Below are positions 4,883 through 24,453 of a DNA stretch of 34,278 nucleotides, in pieces. The notes below the pieces were generated by a model. The model searched no databases. It saw only the letters and a list, made by a program, of their open reading frames with translations, and was not told the DNA's origin. The stretch is from assembly GCA_021824055.1 (NCBI GenBank), contig JAKALV010000003.1, positions 1-34,278 on the forward strand, given 5' to 3'. The DNA is from Acidobacteriota bacterium (GTDB lineage: Bacteria > Acidobacteriota > Vicinamibacteria > Vicinamibacterales > SCN-69-37). Position 1 is the stretch's first letter. The number at the start of each line of letters is the position of its first letter. A program made the position numbers and the translations under genes.

Positions 4883-4889
4883 TCAGGCA

Positions 4890-8248: not shown

Positions 8249-8257
8249 GACCACGAC

Positions 8258-8263
8258 ATTGTA
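8258..8263 (-). promoter_or_regulatory. Putative -10 element (TACAAT) of alaS, near-leaderless
   Basis: TACAAT on the minus strand, 9 nt upstream of ATG 8248, with no Shine-Dalgarno sequence. Confidence 0.5.
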
Positions 8264-8295
8264 CTAGGCAGGCACGGTGAGGCTTGTCGGCAGAT

Positions 8296-8577
8296 CAAGA
8301 GCTTTCACCATGAAGGCCCATGGAGAGCCATGGAGCTGAAACACCGAGGGCCTGGCGGCCGCCTCCGGCGGCCGGCCGGGATGAGGACGAGCGGGAACGA
8401 GAGAGCGTCTCGACCTCACGCGCTCTCTCGTTCCCGCTCGTCCTCATCCCGGCTCGCCCGGCGAAGCCGGGCCACCAGGCCCTCGAGACCTTCATGCCTT
8501 CATGTTGAGCGCTCTTGGACGACGCCCTTGGACGGCGTGCGGCTCCATGGAACTCCATCGCCCTCCATGTTGAGCGC
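8296..8577. repeat. Nested inverted-repeat element between recX and alaS
   Basis: Perfect 33-bp IR 8375-8407/8421-8453. 11-bp IR 8345-8355/8475-8485. Mini-hairpins 8356-8374 and 8456-8472. 18/21 IR 8296-8316/8497-8517. Inverted 10-mer arrays 8308-8336/8541-8570. Confidence 0.92.
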
Positions 8578-8598
8578 CTTGCGACTTGCCACCTTCTG

Positions 8599-9045
8599 CT
8601 ACTTGCGGCTCGCCCGTACTGCCTTGCTGATCGCTTCAGACGTGAAGCCCTTGCGGAGCAGCTGCTGGAAGATCTTCCGACGCTCTTCGGCGGTGGGCCT
8701 GGCCGGGAATCGTTTGCGCGACAGGAACTTCGCGATCGCGGCCGCTTCGTCGTCCGGCGGCAGGTCGGCGATCAACTCGTCGGCGAGGTGCCGGTCGATG
8801 CCGCGCGCGGCCAGTTCCTGGCGGATCCGCAGGCGCCCGCGGCCCTTGATCTGGCTGGACACCCGGACGTGCGCGGCGGCCACGCGGCGATCATCGATCG
8901 TGCGATCTTCGACGAGAGCCGCGACGACGGCGTCGACGTCAGCCGGTGGATGCTCGCGATCGATCAGGCGCTGGCGCAATTCGGCCGTCGTGTAGTCGCG
9001 GCGTCCGAGCAAGGCCAGCGCGGCGCCCCGCACCTTCGCGCTCAC
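8599..9045 (-). CDS. recX: Regulatory protein RecX
   Basis: ALALLGRRDYTTAELRQRL, IDDRRVA, GRLRIRQELAARGI, LLRKGF. GTG start at 9045 with GGAG RBS at 9053-9056. Confidence 0.92.
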   Translation of the reverse strand: MSAKVRGAALALLGRRDYTTAELRQRLIDREHPPADVDAVVAALVEDRTIDDRRVAAAHVRVSSQIKGRGRLRIRQELAARGIDRHLADELIADLPPDDEAAAIAKFLSRKRFPARPTAEERRKIFQQLLRKGFTSEAISKAVRASRK

Positions 9046-9061
9046 GCCGCCACTCCGCACA

Positions 9062-10147
9062 CTAACCCCGGCTGCCCGGCGTGATGCCGCGCAGCCGCAT
9101 CTTGAACTCGTCAACGTTGGTGACCCATCGCAGGGCTTCGTCCACGCTCACAATCTGCTGCTGGCACAACTCCAGGATGGACTGGTCAAACGTCTGCATG
9201 CCGTACTCCGATCCGCCGGACGCGATCGCGGTGGGGATCGACGCGACCTTGTCGCGGTCGGCGATGGCGTCCTTGATGAACGGCGTGCTGATGAGCACTT
9301 CGGCGGCCAGCGCGCGCCCCGTGCCGTCGGCGCGCGGCAGCAGGCGCTGCGAGACGGCCGCCCGAAGCACGCGGGCCAGTTGCAGCCGCACCTGCGCCTG
9401 ATGGTGCGGCGGAAAGACCGAGATGACCCGCGTGATCGTCTCCGCGGCGTCGAGGGTGTGCAGCGTGGAGAGCACGAGGTGACCGGTTTCCGCGGCGATC
9501 AGCGCCGTCTCGATGGTCTCGATGTCCCGCATTTCGCCGACCAGAATCACATCTGGATCCTGCCGGAGCGCGCTCTTCAGGCCCGACGCGTACGACGGCG
9601 TGTCGAACCCGATCTCGCGCTGGCTGATCACGGCGCGCGCGTCCGTGTGCACGAATTCGATCGGGTCTTCAATCGTGAGGATATGCACCGCGCGCGTGCG
9701 GTTGATTTGATCCACGAGGGCCGCCAGCGTCGTGCTCTTGCCGCTGCCGGTGGCGCCCGTCACGATGACCAGACCGCGCGATTCCTCCGACAGCGCGGCC
9801 ACCGACGCCGGCAGCCGCAGCGTTTCGAGCGGCGGCACGGTTGCCGGGATCAGGCGCAGCGCGAGCCCGGTGCTGCCGCGCTGCCGGAAGACGCTGGCGC
9901 GGCAGCGCCCGACCTCGGGGATCTGCCAGGCCACGTCCACTTCCAGGTCGCGCTTCAACCGTTCATGTTGCGCGGGGCTGAGCAGGCGCGCCACGAGGGC
10001 GTCCAGATCGGCGGCGCTGAGCGCGCCGACGTCGTTGACCCGTTTCAACTCGCCGTGCAGGCGCAACAGCGGCGGCTGGCCGGCGCGCAGATGAATATCC
10101 GACGCGCCAACCGCGGCCGCGGAAGAGAGCAAGGCATCAAAGGTCAT
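9062..10147 (-). CDS. pilT: Type IV pilus retraction ATPase PilT/PilU family
   Basis: ASDIHL, Walker A GATGSGKST, TIEDPIE, LRQDPDVILVGEMRD, His box GHLVLSTLH, GMQTFD. Start set at ATG 10147 because the longer ORF-track start translates a repeat array. Confidence 0.93.
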   Translation of the reverse strand: MTFDALLSSAAAVGASDIHLRAGQPPLLRLHGELKRVNDVGALSAADLDALVARLLSPAQHERLKRDLEVDVAWQIPEVGRCRASVFRQRGSTGLALRLIPATVPPLETLRLPASVAALSEESRGLVIVTGATGSGKSTTLAALVDQINRTRAVHILTIEDPIEFVHTDARAVISQREIGFDTPSYASGLKSALRQDPDVILVGEMRDIETIETALIAAETGHLVLSTLHTLDAAETITRVISVFPPHHQAQVRLQLARVLRAAVSQRLLPRADGTGRALAAEVLISTPFIKDAIADRDKVASIPTAIASGGSEYGMQTFDQSILELCQQQIVSVDEALRWVTNVDEFKMRLRGITPGSRG

Positions 10148-10150
10148 GTC

Positions 10151-10325
10151 GTTCGGAGTCCTGGGTCCGGCGTCCAGCGTCCATGGTGCGTTCGGCCACG
10201 GTTCATTGTCCACACTTCTGCGCGGATCGCGCGCGCAAAATGCGCATCGCGCAGGAATGTCACGCGGATTGCGAACGTGGGATCCCGGACCCCGGACTCT
10301 GGACCCTGGACCCTGGACCCTGGAC
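10151..10325. repeat. Inverted heptamer arrays (GTCCnnn ... GGACCCT) filling the ilvE-pilT spacer
   Basis: Left 10151-10185: gttcgga gtcctgg gtccggc gtccagc gtccatg. Right 10280-10325: ggatccc ggacccc ggactct ggaccct x3 ggac. Confidence 0.88.
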
Positions 10326-11266
10326 TACCGAGCCGCGACGGGCGTGTTCACATACGTGAGCCAGCCGTGTTTGTCCGGCGTCTTGCCGTTCACGCAGTCG
10401 AAGAACGCCTGCTGAATCCTGGCCGTGATCGGGCCGCGCTTGCCTTCGCCGATCTTGATCTTGTCGACCGACCTGATCGGCGTCACTTCGACGGCCGTGC
10501 CGGCGAAGAACATCTCGTCGGCGATGTAGCAGAACTCGCGCGGCAGCGCCTGTTCCTTCACCGTGAGCCCCATGTCGTGCGCGAGCGTGATGATCGTGTC
10601 GCGCGTGATGCCGGGCAGCACGGAGGCCGCGATCGGCGGCGTGTAGAGGATCTGGTCGCGCACCAGGAAGATGTTCTGGCCGCTGCCTTCGCTGAGCTGG
10701 CCGCTCACGTCGAGCGCGATGCCCTCGCTGTACCCGTCGGCGACCGCTTCCATCTTGATGAGCCCGGAGTTTGCGTAGTTGGCGACCGACTTGGCCATCG
10801 CCGGGAACGTGTTGGGGGCGCTGCGCGTCCACGAACTGATCTTGACGTCGACGCCTTTCTCGACCGCTTCCGGCCCGAGATACGCGTCCCATTCCCAGAC
10901 GAGAATCATGGCGTCAATCGGGCAGGGGAGCGGGTTCACGCCGAGCGTGTTGTAGCCGCGGTAAATGAGCGGCCGGATGTAGCAGGCCTCGAAGCCGTTC
11001 GCCTTGATCGTGTCGATGACGCCCTGCGTCAACGCATCCTGGCTCTTGCCGTAGTCCATCCGGTAAATGCGCGCCGAGTCGTAGAGGCGCCGCATGTGCG
11101 CATCGAGACGGAAGCACGCCGAGCCCTGCGGCGTCTTGTAACAGCGCGCGCCTTCGAAGACGCCCGTGCCGTAATGAATCACGTGAGACGCCGCGTGGAT
11201 GGTGGCGTCAGCCCAATTGACCAGCTTGCCATTCATCCATACCTTGCCATTACGAGAGAAGGCCAT
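10325..11266 (-). CDS. ilvE: Branched-chain amino acid aminotransferase
   Basis: HYGTGVFEG, YIRP, PLP lysine in AKSVANY, EGSGQNIF, LPGITR, GTAVEVTPI. Confidence 0.96.
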   Translation of the reverse strand: MAFSRNGKVWMNGKLVNWADATIHAASHVIHYGTGVFEGARCYKTPQGSACFRLDAHMRRLYDSARIYRMDYGKSQDALTQGVIDTIKANGFEACYIRPLIYRGYNTLGVNPLPCPIDAMILVWEWDAYLGPEAVEKGVDVKISSWTRSAPNTFPAMAKSVANYANSGLIKMEAVADGYSEGIALDVSGQLSEGSGQNIFLVRDQILYTPPIAASVLPGITRDTIITLAHDMGLTVKEQALPREFCYIADEMFFAGTAVEVTPIRSVDKIKIGEGKRGPITARIQQAFFDCVNGKTPDKHGWLTYVNTPVAAR

Positions 11267-11310
11267 ACAGGCGAGGTTAACAGTACCGGAAAGGTACGGC
11301 TACAGACTTT

Positions 11311-12330
11311 CTACTGTTTCTCGCCGCAGAACGGACAGCGCGTGGCCTTGGCGGGCAGCGGCTTGCGGCACTGCAGACAGAACCGGCCCGCCGACAACTC
11401 GCGCGTGCGCGGTGAACGCTGAATGGCCGGCGTGCGAGCGGCGGGCGCGCGCGGCGGTGGCGACGGTCGTGAGGCCACGGCAGACCCGGGCGCGGACACC
11501 GACGGAATATCGGCAGGCGTTCGGCGTGGCAATGCACGCCGGGCATTCAGCAGGTCGTTGAGCAGATCTTCCGCCCGCTGATAGCGTGACGCCACATCCG
11601 GGGCCATCGCGCGCATGACGATGGTCTCGATGATCTGCGGCACCGACGCGTTGCGGCTGCGCAGGGGCGCCGCCAACTCGCCGCGGCGAAGGCGATCCAG
11701 GTCGCTCGGCGCCGGCGTGTCGTACGGCAGGCCGCCCGTGAGCATCTGGTACATCGTGACGCCCAGCGAATACAGGTCCGACGCAAAGACGGCGCGGCCT
11801 TCGAATTGCTCCGGCGCCATATACGGCGGACTGCCGATGACAGTGGTGCCGTGCGCCGCCACTTCCAGAATGCGCGACGTGCCGAAGTCGCCGACCTTGA
11901 GCAGGCCTTTCTCATTGACGAAGACATTGGCGGGTCTGAGGTCGCGGTGAAGCACACCTTGTTTGTGCGCGTGCTCGACAGCGTTGCAGATCTGGCAGGT
12001 GTAGTCGAGCGACGTCGCCAGATCCAGCCCGCCCTTGGCGCCGATGATGTTCTCGAGGGTTTCCCCCGGCACGTATTCCATGACGATGAAGAACACGTTG
12101 TCCTGTTTTTCCGCCGTGATCACCGTGACGATGTTCGGATGGTTGAGCGAGGCCAGCAGCCGCGGCTCGCGCAGCAACTCGCCGAAGTCGAGACCCTGGC
12201 GATGCGGCACCTTCAGCGCGACGCGCTTGTCGATCCAGGTATCCTCGGCCAGGTACACCGTGCCGAATCCGCCGCTGCCGAGCGGTTCGAGGATGCGGTA
12301 CTTGCCGAGCGTCTGCCCGCGAAACACCAT
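11311..12330 (-). CDS. Cytoplasmic Hanks-type Ser/Thr protein kinase with C-terminal zinc ribbon
   Basis: GSGGFGTV, VALK, HRDLRPAN, DFG, YMAPE, DLYSLG. C-terminal CLQC-x10-CPFC. No transmembrane segment. Start ATG 12330. Confidence 0.92.
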   Translation of the reverse strand: MVFRGQTLGKYRILEPLGSGGFGTVYLAEDTWIDKRVALKVPHRQGLDFGELLREPRLLASLNHPNIVTVITAEKQDNVFFIVMEYVPGETLENIIGAKGGLDLATSLDYTCQICNAVEHAHKQGVLHRDLRPANVFVNEKGLLKVGDFGTSRILEVAAHGTTVIGSPPYMAPEQFEGRAVFASDLYSLGVTMYQMLTGGLPYDTPAPSDLDRLRRGELAAPLRSRNASVPQIIETIVMRAMAPDVASRYQRAEDLLNDLLNARRALPRRTPADIPSVSAPGSAVASRPSPPPRAPAARTPAIQRSPRTRELSAGRFCLQCRKPLPAKATRCPFCGEKQ

Positions 12331-12337
12331 CGGCGAC

Positions 12338-12384
12338 AGTATAGAGGTCCCGGCGCCCACGTACAACGTTCATGGCCCTACAAT
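12338..12384. promoter_or_regulatory. Divergent leaderless-type -10 elements for the kinase (TATACT, minus, 12338-12343) and rsmE (TACAAT, plus, 12379-12384)
   Basis: Near-consensus -10 hexamers lie 7 and 8 nt upstream of the two ATGs, without Shine-Dalgarno sequences. Confidence 0.6.
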
Positions 12385-12392
12385 TCACGGTA

Positions 12393-13109
12393 ATGAGCGC
12401 TCCGCGTGTGCTTGTGCCCGATGTCGAGCCGCCGGAGGTGACGCTGCCGGCCGACGAAGCGCACCACGTCATGCAGGTGCTGCGGCTCGAGGCGGGCGAT
12501 CCGATCGTCGTGTTCGACGGCGCCGGCTGTGAATGGGACGCGCGCCTTGCCTCGGTGGCCAAGCGCGCCGTGACGGCCACAATCCTGCAGGCACGGACGC
12601 CCGTGCCCGAACCGGCGACGCGCGTGATCCTGGCCATCGGGCTGCTCAAGGGCGACGCGATGGATGAAGTGGTGCGCGATGCCACCGCGCTCGGGGTGGC
12701 GGCGATCGTCCCGATGATCACGACGCATTGCGTGGTGCCGAAGCGGGCGCGGGGCGACGAGGCGATCGCGCGGTGGAGGCGGGTGGCGGTGTCGTCGGCC
12801 AAGCAGTGTGGCCGCGCCACGTTGCCGGAGCTCCGGGCGCCGGCGCCGTTCCTCGACGTGTTGCGGGTGGCGGCCGACGTGAAGCTCATCTGTCTCGAGC
12901 CGACGTTTCCGGGAGTGTCGCTTCCGGCGTTCGCGACTGTGCCGCGCACGGCCCTCCTGCTGATTGGTCCGGAGGGCGGCTGGTCGCGTGACGAAGTCGC
13001 GTCGGCGCGCCTTGCGGGTTGTCAGGGACTGCAGCTGGGACCGCTGACCTTGCGCGCGGAACTCGCGCCGGCCGTCGCGCTCAGTCAGTTCTGGGCAGTA
13101 TTCAGTTAA
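12393..13109 (+). CDS. rsmE: 16S rRNA (uracil1498-N3)-methyltransferase
   Basis: EAHHVMQVLRL, KGDAMD..ATALGV, KQCGR, IGPEGG, LGPLTLRAE. Confidence 0.95.
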   Translation: MSAPRVLVPDVEPPEVTLPADEAHHVMQVLRLEAGDPIVVFDGAGCEWDARLASVAKRAVTATILQARTPVPEPATRVILAIGLLKGDAMDEVVRDATALGVAAIVPMITTHCVVPKRARGDEAIARWRRVAVSSAKQCGRATLPELRAPAPFLDVLRVAADVKLICLEPTFPGVSLPAFATVPRTALLLIGPEGGWSRDEVASARLAGCQGLQLGPLTLRAELAPAVALSQFWAVFS

Positions 13110-13355
13110 ACGTGGGTTGACGTAGGCGGCGGGCTTTAGAGCCCGAATGCGAGGATCAGGACGGACGAGAGCCAGTGCATTAACCGTGAAGCTCGTGAAG
13201 AACGTGAAGACGAAACTTGTTGGTTTTCTTCACGCCCTTCGCGTTCTTCACGGTAGATTGCCCTTGAAGGCAAGTAGTCGCTTTTAGCCCTGCGCACAAA
13301 CCGCAGGGCTGAAGATCCTGCGGCCACGTTAACTAACCCTATGTCAACCCACGTT
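13109..13355. mobile_element. MITE/REP-like composite with 18-bp terminal inverted repeats, internal inverted 9-mer arrays and GTAG-type REP-like hairpins
   Basis: aacgtgggttgacgtagg (13109-13126) vs cctatgtcaacccacgtt (13338-13355), 17/18. (cgtgaagNN)x3 at 13183-13210 inverted to 13227-13254, 23/28. Hairpins at 13130-13145 and 13286-13310. Mobility is inferred; no target-site duplication was seen. Confidence 0.6.
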
Positions 13356-13360
13356 CAGGG

Positions 13361-14206
13361 TTAGGCGCGCGCCCAGCTGGCGCCGACCCACTCGTGTTCG
13401 GCCGCTCGTCGCTGCCGCACGAAGCCGGCCCCGATGAGCGCTTGTGCGACCATGGCCTCTTCGTCGATCGTGACGCCGCTCGTGATCAGCAGGCCGGCCG
13501 GCGCCGTGAATCCCGCGAGGGTTGCCGCGAATCGCGCCAGCATGCCGCCCGTGAGGTTGGCCAGGACCACGTCAAATTGCCGGCCGGCGAGCGCCGCTGG
13601 TTCCGCCAGATCCAGTTGCAGCAGCGTGATCGCCGACTCGACGCGGTTCAATTCAAGATTCTCGCGCGCGGACGCGATCGCGTCGGGATCGTAGTCGGCC
13701 GCGACCACCGTGGTCGCGCCGAGGACGCGCGCGGCGATTGCCAGCACGCCCGACCCCGTGCCCACGTCGAGCACGCGCAGGCCGTTGATGAGTGGCAGGT
13801 CCTGCAGCAGTCCAAGGCAGAGGCGCGTCGATTCATGATGCGCCGTGCCGAAACCCATCGACGGCTGGATCACGATGACGGTGGAGCCGTCGTTCGGCAC
13901 GGCCCACGGCGGCGCGACGACGAGCGCGCCGACGCGCACCGCGGTGATCGACGCCTGGCTGCGCTCGGCCCAGTTCTCATCGGAGATCAGCGCGCGCTCG
14001 CAGCGTGCCGACGGATCCACGAGCGGCATGACCGCCGCCGCCCGATCCCGCGCGTCGATGCTGGAGAAGAAGAACCGCGCCGCGCCCTCCACAACGTCGG
14101 CCGCCGTGACGCCGAATTCGTCGAGCTCGGCGAGCAGCCGATCGCGCCGGTCGTCATCGGGCGGCGATGTCCAGCGCAGCACCAGCGCCGGATACTTACG
14201 ATCCAA
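13361..14206 (-). CDS. prmA: 50S ribosomal protein L11 methyltransferase
   Basis: [51 protein letters not shown] start overlapping the dnaJ end. Confidence 0.93.
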
Positions 14207-15338
14207 AGAGATCCTTGACCCGCTCGAAGAACGGCTTCTCGTCGTCGTCGCCATCGATGGCACGCGGCTGGACCTTGTCCAGCGGCATCGCCTTGCCCAA
14301 CTGCTCGACGAGCTTGCGCTGCTCCTTGGTCAATTTCTTCGGCACGTCCACGACGACACGCACGTAGAGGGCGCCGCGGCCCCGGCCCGACACGCTCGGC
14401 ATGCCCTTCCCGCGGAACGGCAGCAGCGTGCCGCTGGCGGTACCGGGCGGGACGTCGATCGTGAGCTCGCCGCCGGGAGGCTCGATCTTGAATGCGCCGC
14501 CCATCGCCATCATCGCGAACGGCACGGGCACCTCCACGAACAGGTCATCGCCCTCGCGATGGTAGATCTCGTGCGGCTTCACGTGCACGACGACGTACAG
14601 GTCGCCCGTCGGGCCGCCGTGCGCGCCGTGTTCGCCTTCGCCGTACATCCGCAGGCGCTGCCCCTCGGCGATGCCCGCGGGAATCTTGACCGTCACCCGG
14701 CGGTCCTTCGTCGTGCGGCCCGTGCCGCGGCACGCCGTGCATGGTTTCGGAATGATCTGCCCGGTGCCCCGGCACTGCCCGCAGGGCCGCGCGACGACAA
14801 GGAAGCCTTGCTGAAAGCGGAGTTGGCCAGCGCCGCGGCACTGCGGGCACGTTTCACGCGCGGAGCCCGGCGCCGCGCCGCTGCCCTTGCACGTCTCGCA
14901 GCTTTCTTCGCGGGGAATCTGGATCGTGGTTTCAGTTCCGGTGAACGAGTCGTTGAAGCTGATCTCGAGGTCGAAGCGCAGATCCGCGCCGCGCTCCGGG
15001 CCGCCGGCCTGGCGGCGTCCGCCGCCGAAGCCGAAGAAGTCGCCGAAGATGTCGGAGAAGTCCGCGAAGATGTCGGGATTGAATCCGGGGCCACCGGGCT
15101 GGCTGGCGGCGCCCGACACGCCCGCGTGCCCGAATCGGTCGTATCGCGCGCGCTTGTCGGCGTCGGCCAGCACGGAATAGGCTTCCGCCGCCTCTTTGAA
15201 TTTCGCCTCCGCCTCGTCGTTGCCCTGATTGCGATCGGGGTGGTACTTCAGCGCCTGCTTGCGGTACGCGCTCTTGATTTCAGAGTCGCTGGCACCTTTG
15301 GCAACACCGAGCACCTCGTAGTAATCACGTGCGCTCAC
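14196..15338 (-). CDS. dnaJ: Chaperone DnaJ
   Basis: J-domain with HPD, G/F-rich region, four CxxCxGxG repeats, GDLYV C-terminal domain. Confidence 0.98.
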
Positions 15339-15820
15339 GCCCGCGCCACCTTGACCATCGACGGCCGCAGCAGGCGGCCGGCCACGCGGTACCCGCGCCG
15401 GAACTCCTCGAGGATCTCGCCGTCGGGTTTGCCCTCGGCGTGTTCCACCGCGACCGATTCGTGCACCTGCGGGTCGAACATCTGTCCGACCGCGTCAATC
15501 GGTTCCACGCCGCGGCGGCGCAACTGTTCGAGCAAGTGACGGTGGGTCAGTTCCACGCCTTGCAGGACGGCGCTCTCGCGGCCGGCGGCTTCCTGGCGGG
15601 AGGCCGCCATCGCGCGCTCGAGATCATCGATGATCGGCAGCAGATCGCGAATCAGGTCGGCGGCGGCGGCTTCGGACAGCTCGCGCCGTTCGCGATCCAC
15701 GCGCTTGCGGTAGTTGTCGAACTCCGCGGTCATGCGGAGCAAACGGTCCTTGAAGTCGTCGCGCTCGGTGGTCAGCGCGTCCAGGTCCAGGGTCGAGGCG
15801 TCGTCAGTCTGTTCAGTCAC
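15335..15820 (-). CDS. grpE: Nucleotide exchange factor GrpE
   Basis: [34 protein letters not shown]...[10 protein letters not shown]. Confidence 0.96.
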
Positions 15821-15838
15821 GTCGATAGTCCGTGGAAA

Positions 15839-16864
15839 TTAGAGCACGCGGCTCACGGCCTGGGACAAGCTGTCCACGACCGAGATCGTCCGCGGATAGC
15901 GCATGCGGGTCGGGCCAATCACGCCGACCGTCGCGCTGCGCGCGCCATCCTGGAACGTGGAGGCCACAATGCTGAAGGGATGCATATCGGGATCGAGGTG
16001 CTCGGACCCGATGACGATCGTCAGGCCGTTGGTGCTCATGTAGCGCGTCAGCAGGTCGAGCAGGCGGTGCTTTTCTTCGATCATCCGGAACAGCGCCCGC
16101 AAGGTTTCGAGCGTCATCCGCTCGTCACGATCGGACAGGCCGTCGAGAAAGGCCGACGTGCCCTGAATGCTGACGGTCTGCGCCGGCGACACTTCGCTGA
16201 GGCCCGACTGCGCCAGTTGCAGTGCCCTGGAGAGCAGCACGTTGTAGAGCACGCGCTCTTCCTGCAGGTGCGCCGCGACCGCTTCGCGGGCTTCGTCGAT
16301 CGTCATGCCCGCAAATTCGCGGTTGATGTAGTTGGCGGCCTCCGCGAGACTCGCGGCGTCGTGCGCCTCGCCGGTCTCCACCATCTTGTGCGTGATGTGG
16401 CCGCCGGTCGATACGACGATCACGAGCACGCGTCTCGCGTCGAGATTCACGAAGTCGACGTGCCGCAACTGCGCGGACGGGCTGGCGGTCAGCGCAAATC
16501 CGATGTGATGGGACTGCCGGGAGAGCTCCTGCGATGCGTTGTCGAGGATGTCGCCAACGGTGCCGGCCTGGCGCAGCCGCGCTTCGACATCGGGGCCCGG
16601 CCGGGTACGCCGCCGGGCGGTCAGCAGGCCCTCGACATAGTGCCGGTAGCCCGAGTCGGTCGGAATCCGGCCGGCTGACGTGTGGGGCTGACGCAGCAGC
16701 CCGTATTCCTCGAGATGCGACAGGATATTGCGGACCGTGGCGGACGAGACGCCCAGGCCGCTGTTCTCCGCGAGCCACGCCGAGGAGATCGGTTCGCCCT
16801 GCTCGATGTACTCCGCCACGAGCCGGGCAAGGAGACGATGCTGACGATCGGTGAGGTCGGACAT
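15839..16864 (-). CDS. hrcA: Heat-inducible transcription repressor HrcA
   Basis: EPISS, SSATVRN, QPHTSAGRIPTDSGYRHYV, GVIGPTRMRY. Confidence 0.97.
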   Translation of the reverse strand: MSDLTDRQHRLLARLVAEYIEQGEPISSAWLAENSGLGVSSATVRNILSHLEEYGLLRQPHTSAGRIPTDSGYRHYVEGLLTARRRTRPGPDVEARLRQAGTVGDILDNASQELSRQSHHIGFALTASPSAQLRHVDFVNLDARRVLVIVVSTGGHITHKMVETGEAHDAASLAEAANYINREFAGMTIDEAREAVAAHLQEERVLYNVLLSRALQLAQSGLSEVSPAQTVSIQGTSAFLDGLSDRDERMTLETLRALFRMIEEKHRLLDLLTRYMSTNGLTIVIGSEHLDPDMHPFSIVASTFQDGARSATVGVIGPTRMRYPRTISVVDSLSQAVSRVL

Positions 16865-16897
16865 TAGCAGTCGGGGTTAGAGACTGCTAACAGTATA
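16864..16897 (-). promoter_or_regulatory. CIRCE operator (variant) plus -10 element of the hrcA operon
   Basis: TTAGCAGTC-N9-GACTGCTAA at 16864-16890 (canonical TTAGCACTC-N9-GAGTGCTAA). TATACT on the minus strand at 16892-16897. Confidence 0.93.
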
Positions 16898-16901
16898 ACG
16901 C

Positions 16902-16991
16902 ATCGGCAATCGGGGAATCTCCAATCGGTAATCTGGGATCGCCAATCGGGCAATTGCGGAATCGGCTGATCGGGGAATCGGGGAATCGGCG
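16902..16991. repeat. Array of about 12 degenerate 7-8 nt units (AATCGG core) downstream of the four-helix-bundle gene
   Basis: aatcgggg aatctcc aatcggt aatctgg gatcgcc aatcgggc aattgcgg aatcggct gatcgggg aatcgggg aatcggcg. Confidence 0.92.
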
Positions 16992-16993
16992 GT

Positions 16994-17395
16994 TCAGCTG
17001 CGCCGAGTGCGGCGCTTGAGTTCTCGATCCGCCGCCTCCCGGCGGCGCGCGGTTGATAGGGCTGCCGTCAGGATTGCCGTGAGCTCGGTGGCCTCGGCGT
17101 AGAGTCCGGCGTGATTGTCAGTGGCGTCCGACGGCACGGCCGCCGATTGCTCCAGGTACTTCAACCAGGCTTGGCTCTCATCGATTTCTTCCACGGCCAG
17201 GCCCAGCTTCGAGGTGAATTCGGCATGCGACCGGGCTCGCCCGGCTGACCGGTGATTGGCCATCGCCGATGACGCCGCGCGACTGAGTTGGCTGGCTGTG
17301 TCCCGCGTCGCGGGGTCCCTGAACAGCGGCCGGCAGAAGATGGCCACTGAAGCTGCGTAGTCGGCGAGGCGATCGCGAAGTTCCTGCGGAGTCAC
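16994..17395 (-). CDS. Four helix bundle protein (23S rRNA intervening-sequence protein / Avd-like family)
   Basis: 133 aa with the family pattern QLSRAASSAMAN...RARSHAEFTSKLGLAVEEIDESQAWL...EATELTAIL. Confidence 0.9.
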   Translation of the reverse strand: MTPQELRDRLADYAASVAIFCRPLFRDPATRDTASQLSRAASSAMANHRSAGRARSHAEFTSKLGLAVEEIDESQAWLKYLEQSAAVPSDATDNHAGLYAEATELTAILTAALSTARRREAADRELKRRTRRS

Positions 17396-17407
17396 GCCCA
17401 GGTTGTG

Positions 17408-17423
17408 TGCACGGCGCCTGCCA
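17408..17423 (-). promoter_or_regulatory. Putative sigma54 (-24/-12) promoter of the four-helix-bundle gene
   Basis: Minus strand TGGCAGGCGCCGTGCA has exact GG-N10-GC spacing (consensus TGGCACG-N4-TTGCW). Predicted +1 is about 17397, 2 nt before the GTG. Confidence 0.5.
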
Positions 17424-17510
17424 CACCCGGTCGCCCGAATTCCCGGGAATTCCGACGCCTCACGACCTCAGCGCGGCATTTATTGCACTCCTCAAGCCCG
17501 CGCCGGACGG

Positions 17511-17647
17511 CAAATTCTGCAATCCCCCAATTCCTCAATTCCTCAATTCCCCGATTCCCCGATTCCCCGATTCCCGATTCCCGATTCCCCGATTCCCGAT
17601 TCCCCAATTGGCAATCGAAGATTGCCGATTATCGATTCTCCGATTCA
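17511..17647. repeat. Array of about 18 degenerate 7-8 nt units (CGATTCC(C)/CAATTCC), reverse complement of the 16902-16991 array
   Basis: caattcct x2, caattccc, cgattccc/cgattcc x7, caattgg caatcga agattgc cgattat cgattctc cgattca. The last unit overlaps the PBP stop codon. Confidence 0.94.
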
Positions 17648-19990
17648 TCGATGGAGAGGGCAGTATTCCCCCGGCTCGGTCCCGGCGAGGAACGCCTCCC
17701 GGATGGTCCGGATGCAGCCCGGCGTGGCGAGCTTGCCGGTGTCCTTGTCGATGTCCACGAACACGAGCCCATCCGGCACGGTGAACGCCTTGTTGCGGTG
17801 TCCGGCGGTGGCGCGCTTCATGAACGCCGTCCAGATCGGCAGCGCGGCCTGGGCGCCGGTGAGACCGATCGGGTTGTTGTTGTCGAAGCCGACCCACACG
17901 GCCGTCAGCAGGTCCGGCGTGAAACCGATGAACCAGGCGTCGCGCTGATCGTTGGTCGTACCGGTCTTGCCGGCCGCGTCGAGCGTGAAGCCCGCCGTGC
18001 GCGCCGCCGCGGCCGTGCCTTCATTGAGCACGCTGCGCATCATGTTCAAGACCAGGTAGGTCGTGTCCGGGCGCGCCACCTGGCGGGCGGGCTCGGGCTT
18101 GATCTTCTTATCCTGGCCGTTTTCGCTGATCCGCGTGATGGCGCGCAGCGGGCGCACGACGCCACCGTTGTCGAAGAGCGTGTAGGCCGACGCCATTTCG
18201 AGCGTCGAGGCTTCGAAGACCCCGAGCGCGATGGACGGATACGGTTTGGCCGGCGAGCCTTCGCCGACCTTGGTCCAGAGATTGGCCACGCGGTCGTAAC
18301 CGGCCTGCTCCGCGACCTTGATGGCGACGATGTTGCGCGAGTGGGCGAGCGCGAACCGCAGGGTGACGGGGCCGTCATATTCGTTCTGATAATTGGTCGG
18401 CGTGTAGGGCTTGCCCTGGTCATCGATCCACGTGGTCGGCTCGTCCACTTCAATCGTAGCCGGTGTCAGGTCGTGGCTGCCGGTCTCGGCCATCTTCTCG
18501 AACGCGGCCAGATACACGAAGGGCTTGAACGTGGAACCCGGCTGCCGGCGCGACGTCACCGCGCGGTTGTACTGCGACTGGTTGTAGCCACGGCCGCCGA
18601 TCATGGCGAGGATGTCGCCCGTCGTCGGGTCGGCGACCACCATCGCCGCCTGCGCGATGTCTTTGCGCTTGCGCGCGAGCAGTTGCTTGTCGACCTGCGC
18701 CAGCCCTTCGGCGAGGGCCTCCTGCGCGAGCCGCTGCAGGTGGACGTCGAGCGTGGTGTAGACGTCCACGGCCGCATCCTTCTTGAGCAGGCCCGCGTAG
18801 CCGTCGTCGACGAGCTGGCTGACGTAGTCGACGAAATACGGCGCCTCGTTCTCCATGGCGCGCGCCGAGATGCCGATCGGCTCGGCCTGGGCTTTCGCCT
18901 TCTCCGCCGGCGTGATGAACCCCGCGTCGGCCATTTCCTTCAGCACGACATTGCGCCGTTCGAGCGCGCGCTCCGGATTGCGGAACGGCGAGAGGCGCGA
19001 GGGCGACTGGATGACGCCCGCGATCGTCGCCGCCTGGGCGATCGAGATGTTGCGCAGGTCCACGCCGAAGAAGATCCGCGAGGCCTCGGCGACGCCGTGG
19101 ATCTCGAACGGGCCGCGCTGGCCGAGCACGACCTCGTTCAGATACAGCTCGAGAATCTGATCCTTGGTCAGCCGCCGCTCCATCACGACGGCGATGAACT
19201 GCTCGGAGAGCTTGCGCCTGAGCGTCTTGGCGGGCGTGAGGAAGGTGTTCTTGACGATCTGCTGCGTCAGCGTGCTGCCGCCGGCCAGATACGTCTTGTC
19301 CCCGCGGAGATTGCGCACCAGGGCGCCGATGGCACCGATCGGATCGATGCCGGGGTGTTCGTAAAAGCGCTTGTCCTCGATCGCCAGCACCGCCTGGATC
19401 ATCCGCTTCGGAATCATGGCGAGCGGCACGTACCGCCGGCGCTCGCCGGTGGCCAGCGCGGCCAGCATGGGCGACTCGAGCGTCAGGCGGGTGAGCGGCT
19501 TGCCCCCCGCGGGCACGATGCGCGTGACCACCGCGCCGGCGCCGCGCGAGAAATCGATCTTGACCAGTTCCGGCGTGGCGCCGGCCTCCGCCTTGGTCAT
19601 CATTTGCAGGCTGGTGGGCGTGGTCGCGAATTCTCCCGGCTGCTCGGCCTTCGGCCGCTCCGAATAGCCCACGTTATTCAGGCGCGACCGCAATTCGGCG
19701 ACCGTGAGCGTCTGCCCCGGATGAATCTCAAAGGCGCGACCGAAGATCCGGGGCATCGGACGGTCCTCGCCGCCGCCGAGCCGCTTGTCGATCATGTGCC
19801 CCACGCTGATCCAGTAGTAGGTCGTGACCGCAATGAGCAGCACCGTGCCGACGCCGACGGCCCACAGCACTCGTTGCATCCACGGGTGCTGACGCCAGGA
19901 GCCCTTGGCTCGCGAGACGGCCGCGGCGCGGGGACGTGCCGGCGGCGTCTTCTTCCGGTCACTGGGCGGGAGGGGCGGACGTGTGGCCAT
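17645..19990 (-). CDS. mrcB: Class A penicillin-binding protein (transglycosylase/transpeptidase, PBP1B-like)
   Basis: N-terminal TM helix and UB2H-like segment. TG motifs EDKRFYEHPG, GGSTLTQQ, LELYLN. TP motifs STFK, SRN, KTG. Assignment to 1B rather than 1A is tentative. Confidence 0.9.
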   Translation of the reverse strand: MATRPPLPPSDRKKTPPARPRAAAVSRAKGSWRQHPWMQRVLWAVGVGTVLLIAVTTYYWISVGHMIDKRLGGGEDRPMPRIFGRAFEIHPGQTLTVAELRSRLNNVGYSERPKAEQPGEFATTPTSLQMMTKAEAGATPELVKIDFSRGAGAVVTRIVPAGGKPLTRLTLESPMLAALATGERRRYVPLAMIPKRMIQAVLAIEDKRFYEHPGIDPIGAIGALVRNLRGDKTYLAGGSTLTQQIVKNTFLTPAKTLRRKLSEQFIAVVMERRLTKDQILELYLNEVVLGQRGPFEIHGVAEASRIFFGVDLRNISIAQAATIAGVIQSPSRLSPFRNPERALERRNVVLKEMADAGFITPAEKAKAQAEPIGISARAMENEAPYFVDYVSQLVDDGYAGLLKKDAAVDVYTTLDVHLQRLAQEALAEGLAQVDKQLLARKRKDIAQAAMVVADPTTGDILAMIGGRGYNQSQYNRAVTSRRQPGSTFKPFVYLAAFEKMAETGSHDLTPATIEVDEPTTWIDDQGKPYTPTNYQNEYDGPVTLRFALAHSRNIVAIKVAEQAGYDRVANLWTKVGEGSPAKPYPSIALGVFEASTLEMASAYTLFDNGGVVRPLRAITRISENGQDKKIKPEPARQVARPDTTYLVLNMMRSVLNEGTAAAARTAGFTLDAAGKTGTTNDQRDAWFIGFTPDLLTAVWVGFDNNNPIGLTGAQAALPIWTAFMKRATAGHRNKAFTVPDGLVFVDIDKDTGKLATPGCIRTIREAFLAGTEPGEYCPLHR

Positions 19991-20046
19991 GTCGGCGAAG
20001 GTCAAGTGTACGCCGAGTGTCGCCCGGCACAGGCCGCCGGCGCGGC

Positions 20047-20075
20047 TTGACAGGGGATGAGGCCGGCACTACGGT
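20047..20075 (+). promoter_or_regulatory. Sigma70-type promoter of the ROK regulator
   Basis: TTGACA (20047-20052), 17-nt spacer, TACGGT (20070-20075). Supports ATG 20090 as the start. Confidence 0.6.
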
Positions 20076-20089
20076 CGTTTCGAACGCGT

Positions 20090-21262: not shown

Positions 21263-21270
21263 GGCGCTGG

Positions 21271-21300
21271 ACTTAATTAAGCTTGTTTATAAAATAGATT
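21271..21300 (+). promoter_or_regulatory. AT-rich candidate ROK operator overlapping the promoter of the TonB-dependent receptor
   Basis: ACTTAATTAAGCTTGTTTATAAAAT is strongly AT-rich in GC-rich DNA and resembles XylR/NagC-type boxes. TAAAAT at 21290-21295 could be the -10. Confidence 0.55.
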
Positions 21301-21456
21301 CCACGAGGACCCCGCTCCGGATGCAGAATGTCCCCAAGCGGTAATCCTGCTGCGTTTCTGAGCACCGGTTTTGGGCCCGGCCGGTGCCACCGCATACTGA
21401 GGCACCGGGTGGCGGATCGGCCGCGAACCCGCGTAGTGAGAGTCAAGGAGCATTGC

Positions 21457-24354
21457 ATGTTTCGTCGAATGATCGGGATGGTGGCGGCGGTGATGCTGGC
21501 CGGGGCGGTTCCGGCGGCGGCGCAGTCGCAGGCGACCAACGGCACGATTGAAGGTATCGTGCGCGACGCGTCCGGAGGAGTGCTGCCGGGGGTGACGGTG
21601 ACCGTCAAGAACGTGGACACCGGCCTGGAGCGCGTTGTGATCAGTAATGAAGCGGGCGCGTTTCGCGCGCCGCTGCTGCCACTGGGCGGATATTCCGTGC
21701 GTGCCGAGTTGCAGGGTTTCAAGAGTTTCGAACAGCAGGGTTTGTCCCTGTCGGCCGGTCAAACCGCCGTCGTCAACGTGACCCTCGCGGTCGGCAACGT
21801 GTCGGAAACCGTGACGGTGACGAGCGAAGCGCCCATCGCGCAGCCCGGAAAGATCGACCTCGGCCGAACGATCAACAGCGAGGAAATCCACAATCTGCCC
21901 CTGCCGTCGCGCAATCCGTACAACTTCGCGTTTCTCCAGGCCAACGTGACCGGCTACGAGAACAATGAGTTCGGCGTCCCGCGCATCAATGCCAATGGCT
22001 CGCAGATGCACACCAACTACCAGCTGGACGGCAACACGAACACCGAGAAGGACCGTGCCGGCCTCCGGTTGCTGCCGGTGTCCGAGGTGCTGGTGCGCGA
22101 GGTCAAGGTCATCACCAACGGCTTCGCGCCGGAATTCGGCCAGACGACGGGCATGGTCTACAACGCCATCACGCCATCGGGCACCAACAAGTTCAGCGGG
22201 TCGGCGAGCTACCGGTTCAAGCGCAACAACATGTCGGCGGCGCCGTTCTACCTCAAGGCCGGCGTGCGCAAGCCCGACACGGTGGCAGACGACGTGACGG
22301 CGACCTTGGGCGGTCCGATTGCAAAGGACAGGACGCACTTCTACGCCGCCTACGAATTCGTGAATCGCAGCCTCATCACGGGGGGGCAGGTCATCACGGT
22401 TGCGGCGGCCGACGCGGCGGCGCTGGGCATCACGCTGCCGGCCGACGGCGTCATTCCGGCGCATCAGCGCGTGAACTTCGGTTTTGGCAAGATCGACCAC
22501 GAACTGAGCAAGAATTCGCACCTCGCCGTGCGCTACTTCCTGTTCAAGAATTTCTCGCCGGCGAACATCGGCGGCGGTCTCACCACGCCGGATCGCGTGA
22601 CCGACTTTACGGACCGCATGGATTCGGCGTCCGCGCAGATGACGACGACCCTGGGCAAGACCTCGTTGAACGAACTCCGCGTCCAGTACGCGCGGCGGCA
22701 TCAGTTCCGCACGGCGGGCGCGACGGCGGCAACGGGGCCCGCGATCGTGGTGTCGGGCAAGGCCAATTTCGGCGGCCCGCGCGCGGGTGGCGGCAACGAC
22801 ATTGGCTTCGACTTCAACCAGGGCATCTGGCAGGTGGTCGACAACGTGTCCGTGCTGCGCGGCCGTCACGCCTTCAAAGTCGGCATCGATGCGCAGCTGA
22901 TCGCCGACGACCGGGTCAAGGGCGATCGGTTCATGTATACCTTCCCGACCATCGCCGCGTATCTCGCGGCGCAGGGCGGGACGAACAAGTACGGTTACAC
23001 GTCCTTGCAGCAGCAGTTCGGCAACGTCAGCGCGAGCTACAACTCGGGCTTCTACGGGTTTTTCCTGCAGGACGACTGGCAGGTCTCGCCGCAGGTGAAG
23101 GTGCTGTACGGCCTGCGCTACGATCTGTTCGACGTGCCGTCGGCGCGGCCGTTTGCGGCCAACAAGTACTCGCAGAATTTCGTGATCGACAAGAACAACA
23201 TCGCGCCGCGCGTGGGAATGTCCTGGTCGATTGACCAGAGCGCGCGCACTGTGCTGCGCGCTTCGACGGGCCTGATGTTCGAGCCGCCGCTGCTGGACTT
23301 CTACGACAACGCCATCCTGAGCAATGGCGATCCGGCCAGCTACACCGTGTCGGTCGCCGGGTCGGCCGCCGGTGCGCCCGCGTACCCGACCAGTCTCGCG
23401 GCGCCGCCGGCTGGGTTCGTCCTGCCGCGTCAGAGCATCATGGCCGTTGACCCGAACTTCAAGACGCAGCAGGCCTGGTTGACCAACGTGCAGCTCGAGC
23501 ACGCGCTGAGCAGCGACATCTCGGTGGCGGCCGGCTACGTCAATTCGATCGGTCGCAACCTGCCGGTGCTCGTCGACGTGAACCTGATTCCGACCGGGGC
23601 GACGCTCGGCGACGGGCGTCCGATCTACTCGACGACGGTGAGCGCGGCGACCCGCGTGGACCCGACGTTTGATCACGTCAACGTGTTTCAGTCAATCGGC
23701 GAGTCGACATACAACGCCGCCACGTTCACGTTGACCAAGCGCATGACGCATGGCTGGCAGGGACAGGCCACCTATACGCTTGCGCGCGGCACGGATACGT
23801 CGCCGTTGACGGGCAGCTATGTCGTCGCCAGCGGAGACGACCGCATGTCGGATCCGTCGAACCTCGCGCGCGACAAGGGCGTGTCGCCCTTCAACCAGAC
23901 GCATACGTTCGTCCTCTCCGCGGTCCTGGCGCCATCGATCAGCGGCAGCGGCCTCGGTGCGATGCTGGCCAACAACAACCAGCTCGGCATCATCCTGCAG
24001 GCCAATAGCGGCCTCCCGTTCAACGTGCGGTCGAACCTGGACCTCAACAAGGACGGCGTGACCAACGACCGGCCGCTGAACATCGACCGGAACACCGGCC
24101 GGTTGGGCAACGTGCTGAATCTGGATCTGCGCTACTCGCGGTTCATTCCTCTCAGAAACGGACGGAAGATCGAAGCGTTTCTCGAGGCCAAGAACCTGGG
24201 GAACCGGCTGAACGTGGCCGGGGTGAACCGCGTGGTGACCACGGATGCGGCCGGCGTTCCGGCGATAGCCATCGCGACGCCCGCGGTGGGCTTTGCCGGC
24301 ACGAGCGCCTACGATCAGCGGCTGGTGCAGGTGGGGTTCAAGTTTGTCTTCTAG
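21457..24354 (+). CDS. TonB-dependent receptor (Oar-like) with N-terminal carboxypeptidase-regulatory-like domain
   Basis: RBS aaggag at 21445-21450, signal peptide (..AAA-Q), G.VRD.SGGVLPGVTV, YQLDG, FAPEFG, FLQDDWQV, YGLRYD, NNIAPRVG, C-terminal FKFVF. Confidence 0.93.
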   Translation: MFRRMIGMVAAVMLAGAVPAAAQSQATNGTIEGIVRDASGGVLPGVTVTVKNVDTGLERVVISNEAGAFRAPLLPLGGYSVRAELQGFKSFEQQGLSLSAGQTAVVNVTLAVGNVSETVTVTSEAPIAQPGKIDLGRTINSEEIHNLPLPSRNPYNFAFLQANVTGYENNEFGVPRINANGSQMHTNYQLDGNTNTEKDRAGLRLLPVSEVLVREVKVITNGFAPEFGQTTGMVYNAITPSGTNKFSGSASYRFKRNNMSAAPFYLKAGVRKPDTVADDVTATLGGPIAKDRTHFYAAYEFVNRSLITGGQVITVAAADAAALGITLPADGVIPAHQRVNFGFGKIDHELSKNSHLAVRYFLFKNFSPANIGGGLTTPDRVTDFTDRMDSASAQMTTTLGKTSLNELRVQYARRHQFRTAGATAATGPAIVVSGKANFGGPRAGGGNDIGFDFNQGIWQVVDNVSVLRGRHAFKVGIDAQLIADDRVKGDRFMYTFPTIAAYLAAQGGTNKYGYTSLQQQFGNVSASYNSGFYGFFLQDDWQVSPQVKVLYGLRYDLFDVPSARPFAANKYSQNFVIDKNNIAPRVGMSWSIDQSARTVLRASTGLMFEPPLLDFYDNAILSNGDPASYTVSVAGSAAGAPAYPTSLAAPPAGFVLPRQSIMAVDPNFKTQQAWLTNVQLEHALSSDISVAAGYVNSIGRNLPVLVDVNLIPTGATLGDGRPIYSTTVSAATRVDPTFDHVNVFQSIGESTYNAATFTLTKRMTHGWQGQATYTLARGTDTSPLTGSYVVASGDDRMSDPSNLARDKGVSPFNQTHTFVLSAVLAPSISGSGLGAMLANNNQLGIILQANSGLPFNVRSNLDLNKDGVTNDRPLNIDRNTGRLGNVLNLDLRYSRFIPLRNGRKIEAFLEAKNLGNRLNVAGVNRVVTTDAAGVPAIAIATPAVGFAGTSAYDQRLVQVGFKFVF

Positions 24355-24356
24355 TT

Positions 24357-24400
24357 AAGGCAGAAGGCAAAAGGCAGAAACACGGCAAAAACAAAGGCAG
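24357..24400. repeat. Short heptamer array (AAGGCAG/AAGGCAA) directly after the receptor stop codon
   Basis: aaggcag aaggcaa aaggcag aaac acggcaa aaaca aaggcag. Confidence 0.7.
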
Positions 24401-24430
24401 ATGCCGGAAACGCCGGCGTCTGCCTTTTTT
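24393..24430 (+). terminator. Rho-independent terminator
   Basis: Stem aaaggcagatgccgg / ccggcgtctgccttt (one G-U pair), loop aaacg, ending in a T6 run. Confidence 0.8.
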
Positions 24431-24453
24431 GTATTATCCGAGAGGACCATGTT

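Follow-up and report, generated by a model that had tools for sequence, protein, structure and literature searches.

Five intergenic spacers within 16 kb of a 34,278-nucleotide stretch of a contig from a soil bacterium of the Acidobacteriota (JAKALV010000003.1; hereafter the window) contain short tandem units of 7 to 10 nt in inverted orientation, and every spacer has its own unit. One of these elements, named el1 to el5, carries a gene encoding a four-helix-bundle protein between its repeat arrays. The architecture of the elements, its non-randomness, its gain and loss among relatives and the existence of both full and empty forms at a single junction are established, as are the association of four-helix-bundle genes with inverted heptamer arrays across phyla and the co-variation of the two arms between genomes. 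We put it at about an even chance that the five spacers are lineage-specific, hairpin-forming cassettes, akin to the paired inverted repeats of Xanthomonas and Geobacter, and that the gene-bearing form is an intercistronic cassette resembling the intervening sequences (IVSs) of 23S rRNA. Most of the finding concerns a known but unexplained kind of element; new are the phylum, the presence of five units in 16 kb and the clean pair of a full and an empty form.

Inverted tandem arrays in the window and its relatives

According to the preliminary description of this DNA, the five spacers share an architecture and not a sequence, and this was borne out. Units were counted with at most one mismatch; between 3 and 11 copies per arm were found at periods of 7 to 10 nt. 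A convergent pair of arrays on opposite strands is present in four of the five elements, el5 having a single inverted copy. The RNA folds of the spacers were compared with dinucleotide shuffles, and in none of the five did any shuffle reach the stability of the real fold (z-scores of −11.97 for el1, −4.02 for el2, −8.66 for el3, −5.30 for el4, and −3.97 for el5). The three-unit arrays of el1, el3, and el5 reach scores of only 33 to 39 in Tandem Repeats Finder (TRF), which lie within the range of the shuffles (maximum 44 to 52); the non-random feature of these three elements is the inverted symmetry, not the tandem score.

For a wider census, an HrcA scan of species-representative genomes provided 32 loci, all from metagenome-assembled genomes labelled as Acidobacteriota, Vicinamibacterales, or Solibacteraceae, in which the gene order from PBP1A to alaS is kept; the top HrcA matches share 89% identity. 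Loci of relatives and of plasmids are cited below by number (L001 and so on). The window and the 32 syntenic loci (622,031 bases, 34 kb of which are from this genome) were searched by TRF for arrays with periods of 7 to 11 and a score of at least 30, with 20 dinucleotide shuffles in 300-nt blocks as control. The search returned 178 arrays, 18 inverted pairs, and 4 direct pairs, compared to 100.7 ± 9.6 arrays, 3.95 ± 1.7 inverted pairs, and 4.1 ± 2.0 direct pairs in the shuffles. While the best shuffled array scored 44 to 52, 22 real arrays reached 50 or more (counted from the printed scores). Strong arrays and inverted pairing are therefore in excess and direct pairing is not. Several of the 18 inverted pairs are coincidences in GC-rich coding regions.

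The five elements are heterogeneous in makeup (Table 1). Long arrays surround a gene in el4, and el2 is a plain inverted pair, whereas el1 and el3, which have three units in each arm, are palindromes made of several nested hairpins. The two arms of el2 are 75% to 79% complementary across 34 to 40 nt, and the element ends 2 nt before the pilT ATG. Several further hairpins lie inside the outer stem of el3. In el5, the 5' arm of the hairpin is a further copy of AAGGCAG, which occurs four times in forward orientation, and the only reverse copy forms the 3' arm. A GC-rich stem followed by a T-run, as expected of an intrinsic terminator, is found in el5 only, so that the suggested reuse of the elements as terminators fits el5 and none of the other four.

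The window, read 5' to 3', was mapped by a Pfam profile scan of 33 open reading frames (ORFs) and is a housekeeping region. No Rfam family matched anywhere in it. Between positions 8000 and 25000, no sigma-70-type promoter was predicted save one at 21268, in a scan that may not suit this phylum. An 8-mer array, GGCAATGG in 2.5 copies (4886-4905), lies 3 nt past the stop codon of a pilin-like gene (4340-4882) and may be a sixth, minimal member; an ATG inside it opens a short ORF resembling a signal peptide.

Table 1. Coordinates of the repeat elements, their parts, and the surrounding genes in the window
Feature	Position	Strand	Description
el1	8255-8598	−	Spacer of 344 nt from recX stop to alaS start; nested palindrome
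el1 outer arms	8305-8336, 8542-8573		Three units each of CCATGGAG (CCATGGAGnn), period 10; forward at 8308, 8318, 8328; reverse at 8543, 8553, 8563
el1 inner arms	8345-8360/8470-8485, 8370-8407/8421-8458		Second pair 38 nt, 95% complementary
el2	10148-10327	−	Spacer from ilvE-like stop to pilT-like start
el2 array	10287-10325		GGACCCT in 5.6 copies, period 7; forward ×5 at 10287-10315; abuts or overlaps ilvE-like stop
el2 left arm	10150-10190		Degenerate, beside pilT ATG; reverse ×2 at 10162, 10176
el3	13109-13360	.	Spacer between the convergent rsmE and prmA stops
el3 outer stem	13109-13126/13338-13355		18 bp, starting at rsmE stop
el3 inverted pair	13183-13210/13227-13254		CGTGAAGnn, three units each, period 9; CGTGAAG forward at 13185, 13194, 13203; reverse at 13228, 13237, 13246
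el4	16902-17652		Overlaps PBP1A stop
el4 hrcA-side arm	16902-16992	−	Degenerate AATCGGG(G) units, 8 copies
el4 cargo ORF	16994-17395	−	133-aa four-helix-bundle protein, 23S rRNA intervening-sequence protein family
el4 untranslated stretch	17396-17512	−	Between cargo start and PBP1A-side arm
el4 PBP1A-side arm	17513-17652	−	CCCCGATT/CCCGATT units; TRF 11 copies, score 107
el5	24355-24437	+	AAGGCAG in 3.3 copies at 24357-24379, 2 nt past receptor stop
el5 hairpin	24393-24427		Terminator-like; 15-bp stem with 9 GC pairs, then T-run
alaS	5588-8254	−	Start at 8254
recX	8599-9060/9114	−	Stop 8599-8601
PilT-like ATPase	9062-10147	−	ATG at 10147
ilvE-like class IV aminotransferase	10325-11266	−	Stop 10325-10327
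Ser/Thr kinase			Between ilvE-like gene and rsmE
rsmE	12372-13109	+	
prmA	13361-14263	−	
dnaJ, grpE			Between prmA and hrcA
hrcA	15839-16864	−	
PBP1A	17645-20005	−	Stop 17645-17647
ROK regulator			Between PBP1A and TonB-type receptor
TonB-type receptor	21328-24354	+	Stop 24352-24354
argH-like lyase	24454-25908	+	
bshC			Last in window order, after argH-like lyase

The four-helix-bundle gene and its arrays

Only el4 carries a gene, as the preliminary description had stated; an 87-aa ORF within el1 has no Pfam match. In el4, AATCGGG occurs eight times in forward orientation (16908-16984) and 13 times in reverse, 11 of the latter within the arm (17526-17639). Stretches of 47 to 66 nt in the two arms are 74% to 79% complementary, and the predicted fold pairs the arms with each other. 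The protein encoded between them was assigned to its family by Pfam PF05635 (35.1 bits, cut-off 33.8), NCBIfam TIGR02436 (50.3 bits, cut-off 24), and a match to the structure 2rld in the PDB (E = 1.2e-7). Its relatives at E ≤ 1e-5 number 67, and most of them carry the name four helix bundle protein. Several database relatives are called as proteins of 82 to 89 aa that correspond to no more than the C-terminal two thirds, which makes it uncertain where the window protein truly starts. The ORF is co-oriented with the flanking genes, follows directly past a stop codon, and has a GC content at third codon positions (GC3) of 0.76 versus 0.82 to 0.90 in the neighboring genes. Its site of insertion is not a 23S rRNA helix, as it is flanked by PBP1A and hrcA and no Rfam family matches in the window. 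The inner limit of el4 is a CIRCE-like operator (controlling inverted repeat of chaperone expression; TTAGCAGTC-N9-GACTGCTAA, 16864-16890), which abuts the hrcA start and is kept in L001 to L005. To our knowledge, the family of four-helix-bundle intervening-sequence proteins is large and has no known role.

The PBP1A/hrcA junction exists in several states. The window combines arrays of the GGGAATC type with the four-helix-bundle gene, L003 has a 230-nt inverted pair of GGGCAAT/GGGAATC units and L005 a short inverted pair of a GGGAATC-type unit, both without the gene, L001 retains a single arm, and L002 and L004 have no array in their 45 to 48 nt. In a global alignment, the two el4 arms of the window map onto the two arms of L003, and the unmatched part (approximately 16982-17509) lies at the hairpin apex, where L003 has no insert; the untranslated stretch beside the cargo gene also has no counterpart in the L003 hairpin. 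The arms co-vary between the two genomes: GGGCAAT is found three and two times in the arms of L003, and GGGGAAT five and three times in those of the window. The proposal that the elements are full and empty members of one class is therefore supported at this junction, while the other four elements of the window are linked to it by architecture only. A four-protein FastTree tree gave the topology ((L003,L005),(L004,(window,(L001,L002)))), which makes arrays at this junction most simply ancestral.

The gene and the arrays also occur together elsewhere. A second homologue from Vicinamibacterales (L028, 4121-4483; 42% identity, TIGR02436 family) lies between inverted arrays of AATGGGTG and CATTCACC, which start 7 to 8 nt from the bshC and argH stop codons. 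Searches of PLSDB plasmids by tblastn with two queries returned 12 and 30 records, from which 18 loci (10 and 8) were taken regardless of repeats; they span Cyanobacteriota, Bacteroidota, Chloroflexota, Spirochaetota, and Bacillota. Arrays with a period of 7 or 8 flank the four-helix-bundle gene on both sides in all 18. In 13 loci, an upstream unit matches the reverse complement of a downstream unit with at most one mismatch, and in 4 more with two mismatches; in the remaining one, the units match in direct orientation only. As a background estimate, period-7 arrays were counted in three plasmid stretches (119 kb), and 8 of the 15 present are within 300 nt of the three four-helix-bundle genes. 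The association of a four-helix-bundle cargo with arrays holds for the 18 plasmid loci and for both Vicinamibacterales copies. In 13 of the 18 cases, the gene lies between two co-oriented genes, often in restriction or defense operons; examples of flanking pairs are hsdS/hsdR, drmD/MmeI, and an RND (resistance-nodulation-division) efflux adaptor with its permease. Four-helix-bundle proteins that are 65% to 88% identical carry related GATT-type units; arrays and gene thus travel together. A Planktothrix plasmid contains, at another junction of the same DISARM operon, a gene-less inverted pair with the units found around the gene.

No recombinase, reverse transcriptase, or transposase is among the 33 ORFs scanned in the window, and no steady association with a recombinase was found on the plasmids, where an integrase adjoins the gene in 2 of the 18 loci and XisH/XisI in 1.

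The plasmid loci yielded several further observations. In the Planktothrix plasmid L045 (18530-19446), a gene encoding a 94-aa GIY-YIG nuclease in the same DISARM operon has repeated hairpin modules on either side, the units of which are longer (GTCATTCTGAG... and ...CATTCAGGATGAC); the gene is a second type of cargo in a similar layout. Within an annotated DUF1156 coding sequence of a Gloeocapsa plasmid (L043, 9870-10088), arrays of AATCAAA, ATTTTAG, and AATCAAA are located at a distance of 2.2 kb upstream from the four-helix-bundle gene; the ATTTTAG unit is also found at that gene. On a Planktothrix and a Chlorohelix plasmid (L034 and L036), the whole module of left and right arm is present on each side of the gene, which amounts to a direct repeat of the hairpin. 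An operon of DUF1156, four-helix-bundle, and Swt1-HEPN genes is shared by a cyanobacterial (L033) and a Chloroflexota plasmid (L036); the small proteins are 71% identical and have the same GATTTTA-type unit, which suggests that the operon was transferred together with the cassette.

Position and turnover of the arrays

In the preliminary description, the elements began at or within 3 nt of the ilvE, rsmE, PBP, and receptor stop codons. The array of el2 and the PBP1A-side arm of el4 reach their stop codons (0 nt each) and that of el5 begins 2 nt past it; at rsmE, it is the outer stem of el3 that starts at the stop (0 nt), the arrays following 74 nt past it. For el1, to which no stop codon had been assigned, the distance to the recX stop is 25 nt. 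By rough gene calls, 34 spacers between a stop and a start codon contain arrays. In 26 of them the array is closer to the stop codon, and in 5 it is closer to the start codon (binomial p = 2e-4). Median distances to stop and start are 4 and 61.5 nt, respectively, and 19 of the 34 arrays lie no more than 5 nt from the stop. Arrays were also found in 10 of 53 convergent spacers. The counts by spacer type rest on GC3-based gene calls that missed or merged a few window genes, and are approximate. The arm next to the stop codon shows no strand bias (G>C in 18, C>G in 14 of 34).

The anchoring at stop codons is real and can be explained by constraint. Orthologous spacers free of arrays measure 6 to 48 nt and consist largely of conserved start-proximal motifs, so that the position after the stop codon is almost the only free one, and a mechanism targeting the 3' ends of genes, as had been proposed, is not required. 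Examples are the CIRCE operator ahead of hrcA and TAGTACAATG, which lies approximately 10 nt ahead of the alaS start (window 8255-8275) and is kept in L002 and L004, as is GTGGACAAT ahead of pilT. TAGTACAATG and GTGGACAAT may represent −10 boxes of mRNAs that are leaderless or have a short leader. The pilT motif of the window is set apart from its ATG by el2.

At 11 shared junctions, arrays are present in 23 of 231 junction-instances, namely in 5 of 11 in the window and in 18 of 220 elsewhere. This sporadic occurrence, together with units that differ among genomes at the same junction, shows that the elements are not ancient invariant terminators, an alternative that had been considered at the outset. 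The recX/alaS spacer of 344 nt in the window measures 6 to 22 nt in the five closest relatives, and el1 is missing from the orthologous spacers of L002, L003, and L004; units at this junction are CATGGAGGGC, CGGCACCTGA, or CTGAACC, depending on the genome. Similarly, the prmA/rsmE spacer has 251 nt in the window versus 0 to 60 nt in the five closest relatives. L003 has a miniature el3 here (53-60 nt), which shares the outer stem and encloses two hairpins in it, and the four other close relatives have 0 to 20 nt. In the receptor/argH spacer, nested inverted arrays of AGGGCAG and AAAGGAA in L005 represent a fully inverted version of the el5 unit, and L003 has a different unit plus a terminator.

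Units recur at other sites as well. That of el2 (as GTCCAGG) forms an inverted pair of 11 and 10 units at a different site in L001 (1894-2041); for el2 and el4, shared units are all that a search of the 622 kb for dispersed copies of the element sequences turned up. In L030, arrays of the 9-mer GTTCCCGTC were seen in three spacers (3767-3823, 7426-7456, and 9670-9725). In L014 (7773-8627), 9-mer arrays (GGTGCTCAG) flank a 173-aa fragment of an FtsX-like permease, which is followed by a complete inverted pair. A cassette may have captured a gene fragment here, or may have been split by one.

Origin of the elements and comparison with known systems

The reading favored here, that of hairpin-forming cassettes with an IVS-like gene-bearing form, would run as follows. 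The gene-bearing form would be a promoterless four-helix-bundle ORF (S23p/Avd-like, TIGR02436), bracketed by inverted arrays after a stop codon and placed at the apex of a hairpin of which empty versions exist elsewhere. The cassette would be transcribed by read-through from the upstream gene. Its arms may pair in the RNA into a long stem tolerant of register shifts, similar to the terminal stem of the 23S rRNA IVS, which is cut by RNase III; by analogy, processing of the stem could render the insert harmless to the operon and either release the cargo RNA or lead to its degradation. Empty cassettes might function as intercistronic processing sites or as hairpins protecting 3' ends, and el5 probably acts as an intrinsic terminator. 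The length of the arrays would change via replication slippage, and recombination within the arms may transfer cargo between full and empty elements that have like units; such an exchange would fit the position at the apex as well as the existence of full and of empty alleles.

A wider version is tentative, and we consider it possible rather than probable. It takes inverted arms with a four-helix-bundle ORF as selfish intercistronic cassettes common to several phyla, that is, intervening sequences of mRNA operons; the orphan heptamer arrays abundant in intergenic DNA of prokaryotes (among them those of cyanobacteria, Xanthomonas with GGGAATC, Geobacter, and Vicinamibacterales) would be empty docking sites or relics, and the cargo would have moved by recombination between like units or by an activity of the protein itself.

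Several observations weigh against the cassette reading. Cargo or a cargo remnant is absent from el1, el2, el3, and el5, and their units are unrelated; an origin of these four that is independent of the cargo cassette is a serious rival. At PBP1A/hrcA, the arrays probably predate the gene, whose distribution implies one late gain or at least three losses. An array of L003, GCAGATAG, repeats the last codons of ilvE itself plus the stop codon; arrays can thus arise from local sequence. On our reading of the list, approximately 13 inverted pairs among the 69 non-coding arrays are real, so that most arrays are single. Of 47 divergent spacers, for which no read-through would be expected, 8 also contain arrays (rough gene calls). 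Among nine co-directional elements, the sense strand folds better in just six, a result that does not point to selection on the RNA as opposed to the DNA.

Alternatively, the arrays may be neutral by-products of replication slippage, originating from local sequence in the sole unconstrained place, just past stop codons, and unrelated to the four-helix-bundle cassette, with the gene having merely colonized one hairpin. The L003 array built from the ilvE 3' end, the differing units and the sporadic occurrence at shared junctions, the shortness of array-free spacers, and the parsimonious order of arrays before gene at PBP1A/hrcA all agree with this view, as does the excess of heptamer repeats in prokaryotic intergenic DNA, for which polymerase slippage has been proposed (PMC4679880; 10.1101/309039). 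We nevertheless judge it unlikely. Slippage alone makes no inverted pairs, and these are enriched 4.5-fold whereas direct pairs are not; the 344-nt nested palindrome of el1 is not derivable from an ancestral spacer of 6 to 22 nt; unrelated sites have units in common (GTCCAGG in the window and L001, GTTCCCGTC in L030); and all 18 plasmid cargo genes have arrays.

Distinctly less probable is a role of the arrays as DNA binding sites, either for a global or nucleoid regulator or for the four-helix-bundle protein, each subunit of which would bind one unit. The paired sites of Geobacter, each of three to five tandem 7-9-mers, have been interpreted in this way (PMC2700814), the protein family is homologous to the nucleic-acid-associated protein Avd of diversity-generating retroelements (DGRs; PMC10053308), and related proteins carry related units. 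The match between protein and unit is, however, explained equally well by co-inheritance, most arrays have no such gene nearby, and five units in 16 kb, with dozens in relatives, would call for as many binding specificities. Lineage-specific insertion, palindromic structure, and recurrence of units at several sites are also what would be expected of non-autonomous mobile elements of the type of repetitive extragenic palindromes (REPs) or miniature inverted-repeat transposable elements, whose transposase is encoded elsewhere in the genome. This appears quite improbable given that the 622 kb, 34 kb of them from this genome, contain no sequence copy of el1, el3, or el5, that neither conserved termini nor target duplications were seen when the flanks of the elements were read, and that the window's scanned ORFs lack the enzymes named above. 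Regulatory G-quadruplexes or i-motifs, as proposed for the GGGAATC repeats of Xanthomonas, seem highly improbable as a general explanation. The el4 unit is identical to that heptamer (GGGAATC/GGGGAATC), for which a quadruplex was shown in vitro (PMC4692102). Runs of three G are absent from CCATGGAG, GGACCCT, CGTGAAG, and AAGGCAG, from most units of the relatives, and from A/T-rich plasmid units such as TTCAAAA and AATTACG; this diversity argues against a general role, and such a role could still apply to el4 by itself.

The part worth following is the cross-phylum link to four-helix-bundle genes. The rule that these genes are accompanied by arrays, in the 18 plasmid loci and both Vicinamibacterales copies, gives two puzzles, what the tandem heptamers do and what role the protein family has, one experimental handle: a junction with full and empty alleles, an RNA stem predicted from the arms, and a small protein with its own repeats. 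For annotation, it is relevant that the cassettes split operons, including restriction and defense operons, apparently without harm. In the literature consulted, partly available as excerpts, no paper linked non-rRNA four-helix-bundle genes to flanking inverted heptamer arrays; curated family notes may do so.

Among known elements, tandem heptamers are reported to be the most frequent of the periodic repeats in intergenic DNA of prokaryotes, and there is "no clear clue" as to what they do (10.1101/309039). Those of Beggiatoaceae (TAACTGA) are intergenic tandem repeats with a patchy phylogenetic distribution (PMC4679880), but are mostly direct and end just upstream of start codons, with one inverted case described in 170 sets (PMC4679880). 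Like REPs, bacterial interspersed mosaic elements, and intrinsic terminators, the window elements are intergenic hairpins at the 3' ends of genes, and el5 has the shape of a terminator; unlike them, they have arms of tandem repeats, are locus-specific, contain a T-run in one of five cases, and did not form a dispersed family in the 622 kb. PF05635 resembles the DGR accessory protein Avd, which belongs to a homologous four-helix-bundle fold family (PMC10053308). Unlike Avd genes of DGRs, the window cargo has no reverse transcriptase among the 33 scanned ORFs and no adjoining template or variable repeat.

The term "uncharacterised", applied to the element class in the preliminary description, was too strong, since paired inverted 7-9-mers near stop codons have been published for Xanthomonas (PMC4692102) and Geobacter (PMC2700814). 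The Xanthomonas and Nostoc heptamers (GGGAATC and GGGGA(C/T)T) are non-coding, lie mostly between co-oriented ORFs, and are mostly found 0 to 50 bp from a stop codon or overlap it; a Xanthomonas genome has 70 to 75 convergent inverted pairs with variable repeat numbers, and a G-quadruplex role was proposed (Rehm et al., 2015; PMC4692102). The inverted tandem arrays near stop codons correspond to these repeats, and the el4 unit is identical. In contrast to the single dominant unit of a Xanthomonas genome, five units occur in 16 kb of the window; 83% of the Xanthomonas repeats are in the same context in two species (PMC4692102), whereas occurrence in the window and its relatives is sporadic. A G-tract unit (GGGNATC) able to form a quadruplex is found in el4 only, and most units here cannot form one. 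The text and supplements available for that study name no cargo or four-helix-bundle gene, neighbors being given as "hypothetical protein" (PMC4692102). In Geobacter metallireducens, three classes of paired sites on opposite strands, each with three to five tandem 7-9-mers at variable pair distance, lie in spacers inside operons, for example proBA, and were interpreted as regulator-binding (Aklujkar et al., 2009; PMC2700814). Paired inverted units of 7 to 9 nt and several unit classes per genome are common to both cases; a Geobacter class recurs at 8 to 24 sites, whereas each window unit was seen once, that is, five units at five sites in 34 kb.

The closest counterpart of el4 as a gene-bearing form is the 23S rRNA IVS with its S23p protein in Coxiella and Leptospira. 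The host site differs, being the mRNA spacer between PBP1A and hrcA instead of a 23S rRNA helix, and the el4 arms comprise 90 to 140 nt of repeats compared to the 28-bp terminal stem of the Coxiella IVS, which is cut by RNase III (PMC4990558). In both, an ORF of the same family lies in the loop of a long stem and is co-oriented with the host transcript. The stem region of the Coxiella IVS contains tandem heptamers, the number of which varies among strains (PMC4990558), and tandem heptamers within the stem region are likewise a feature of el4.

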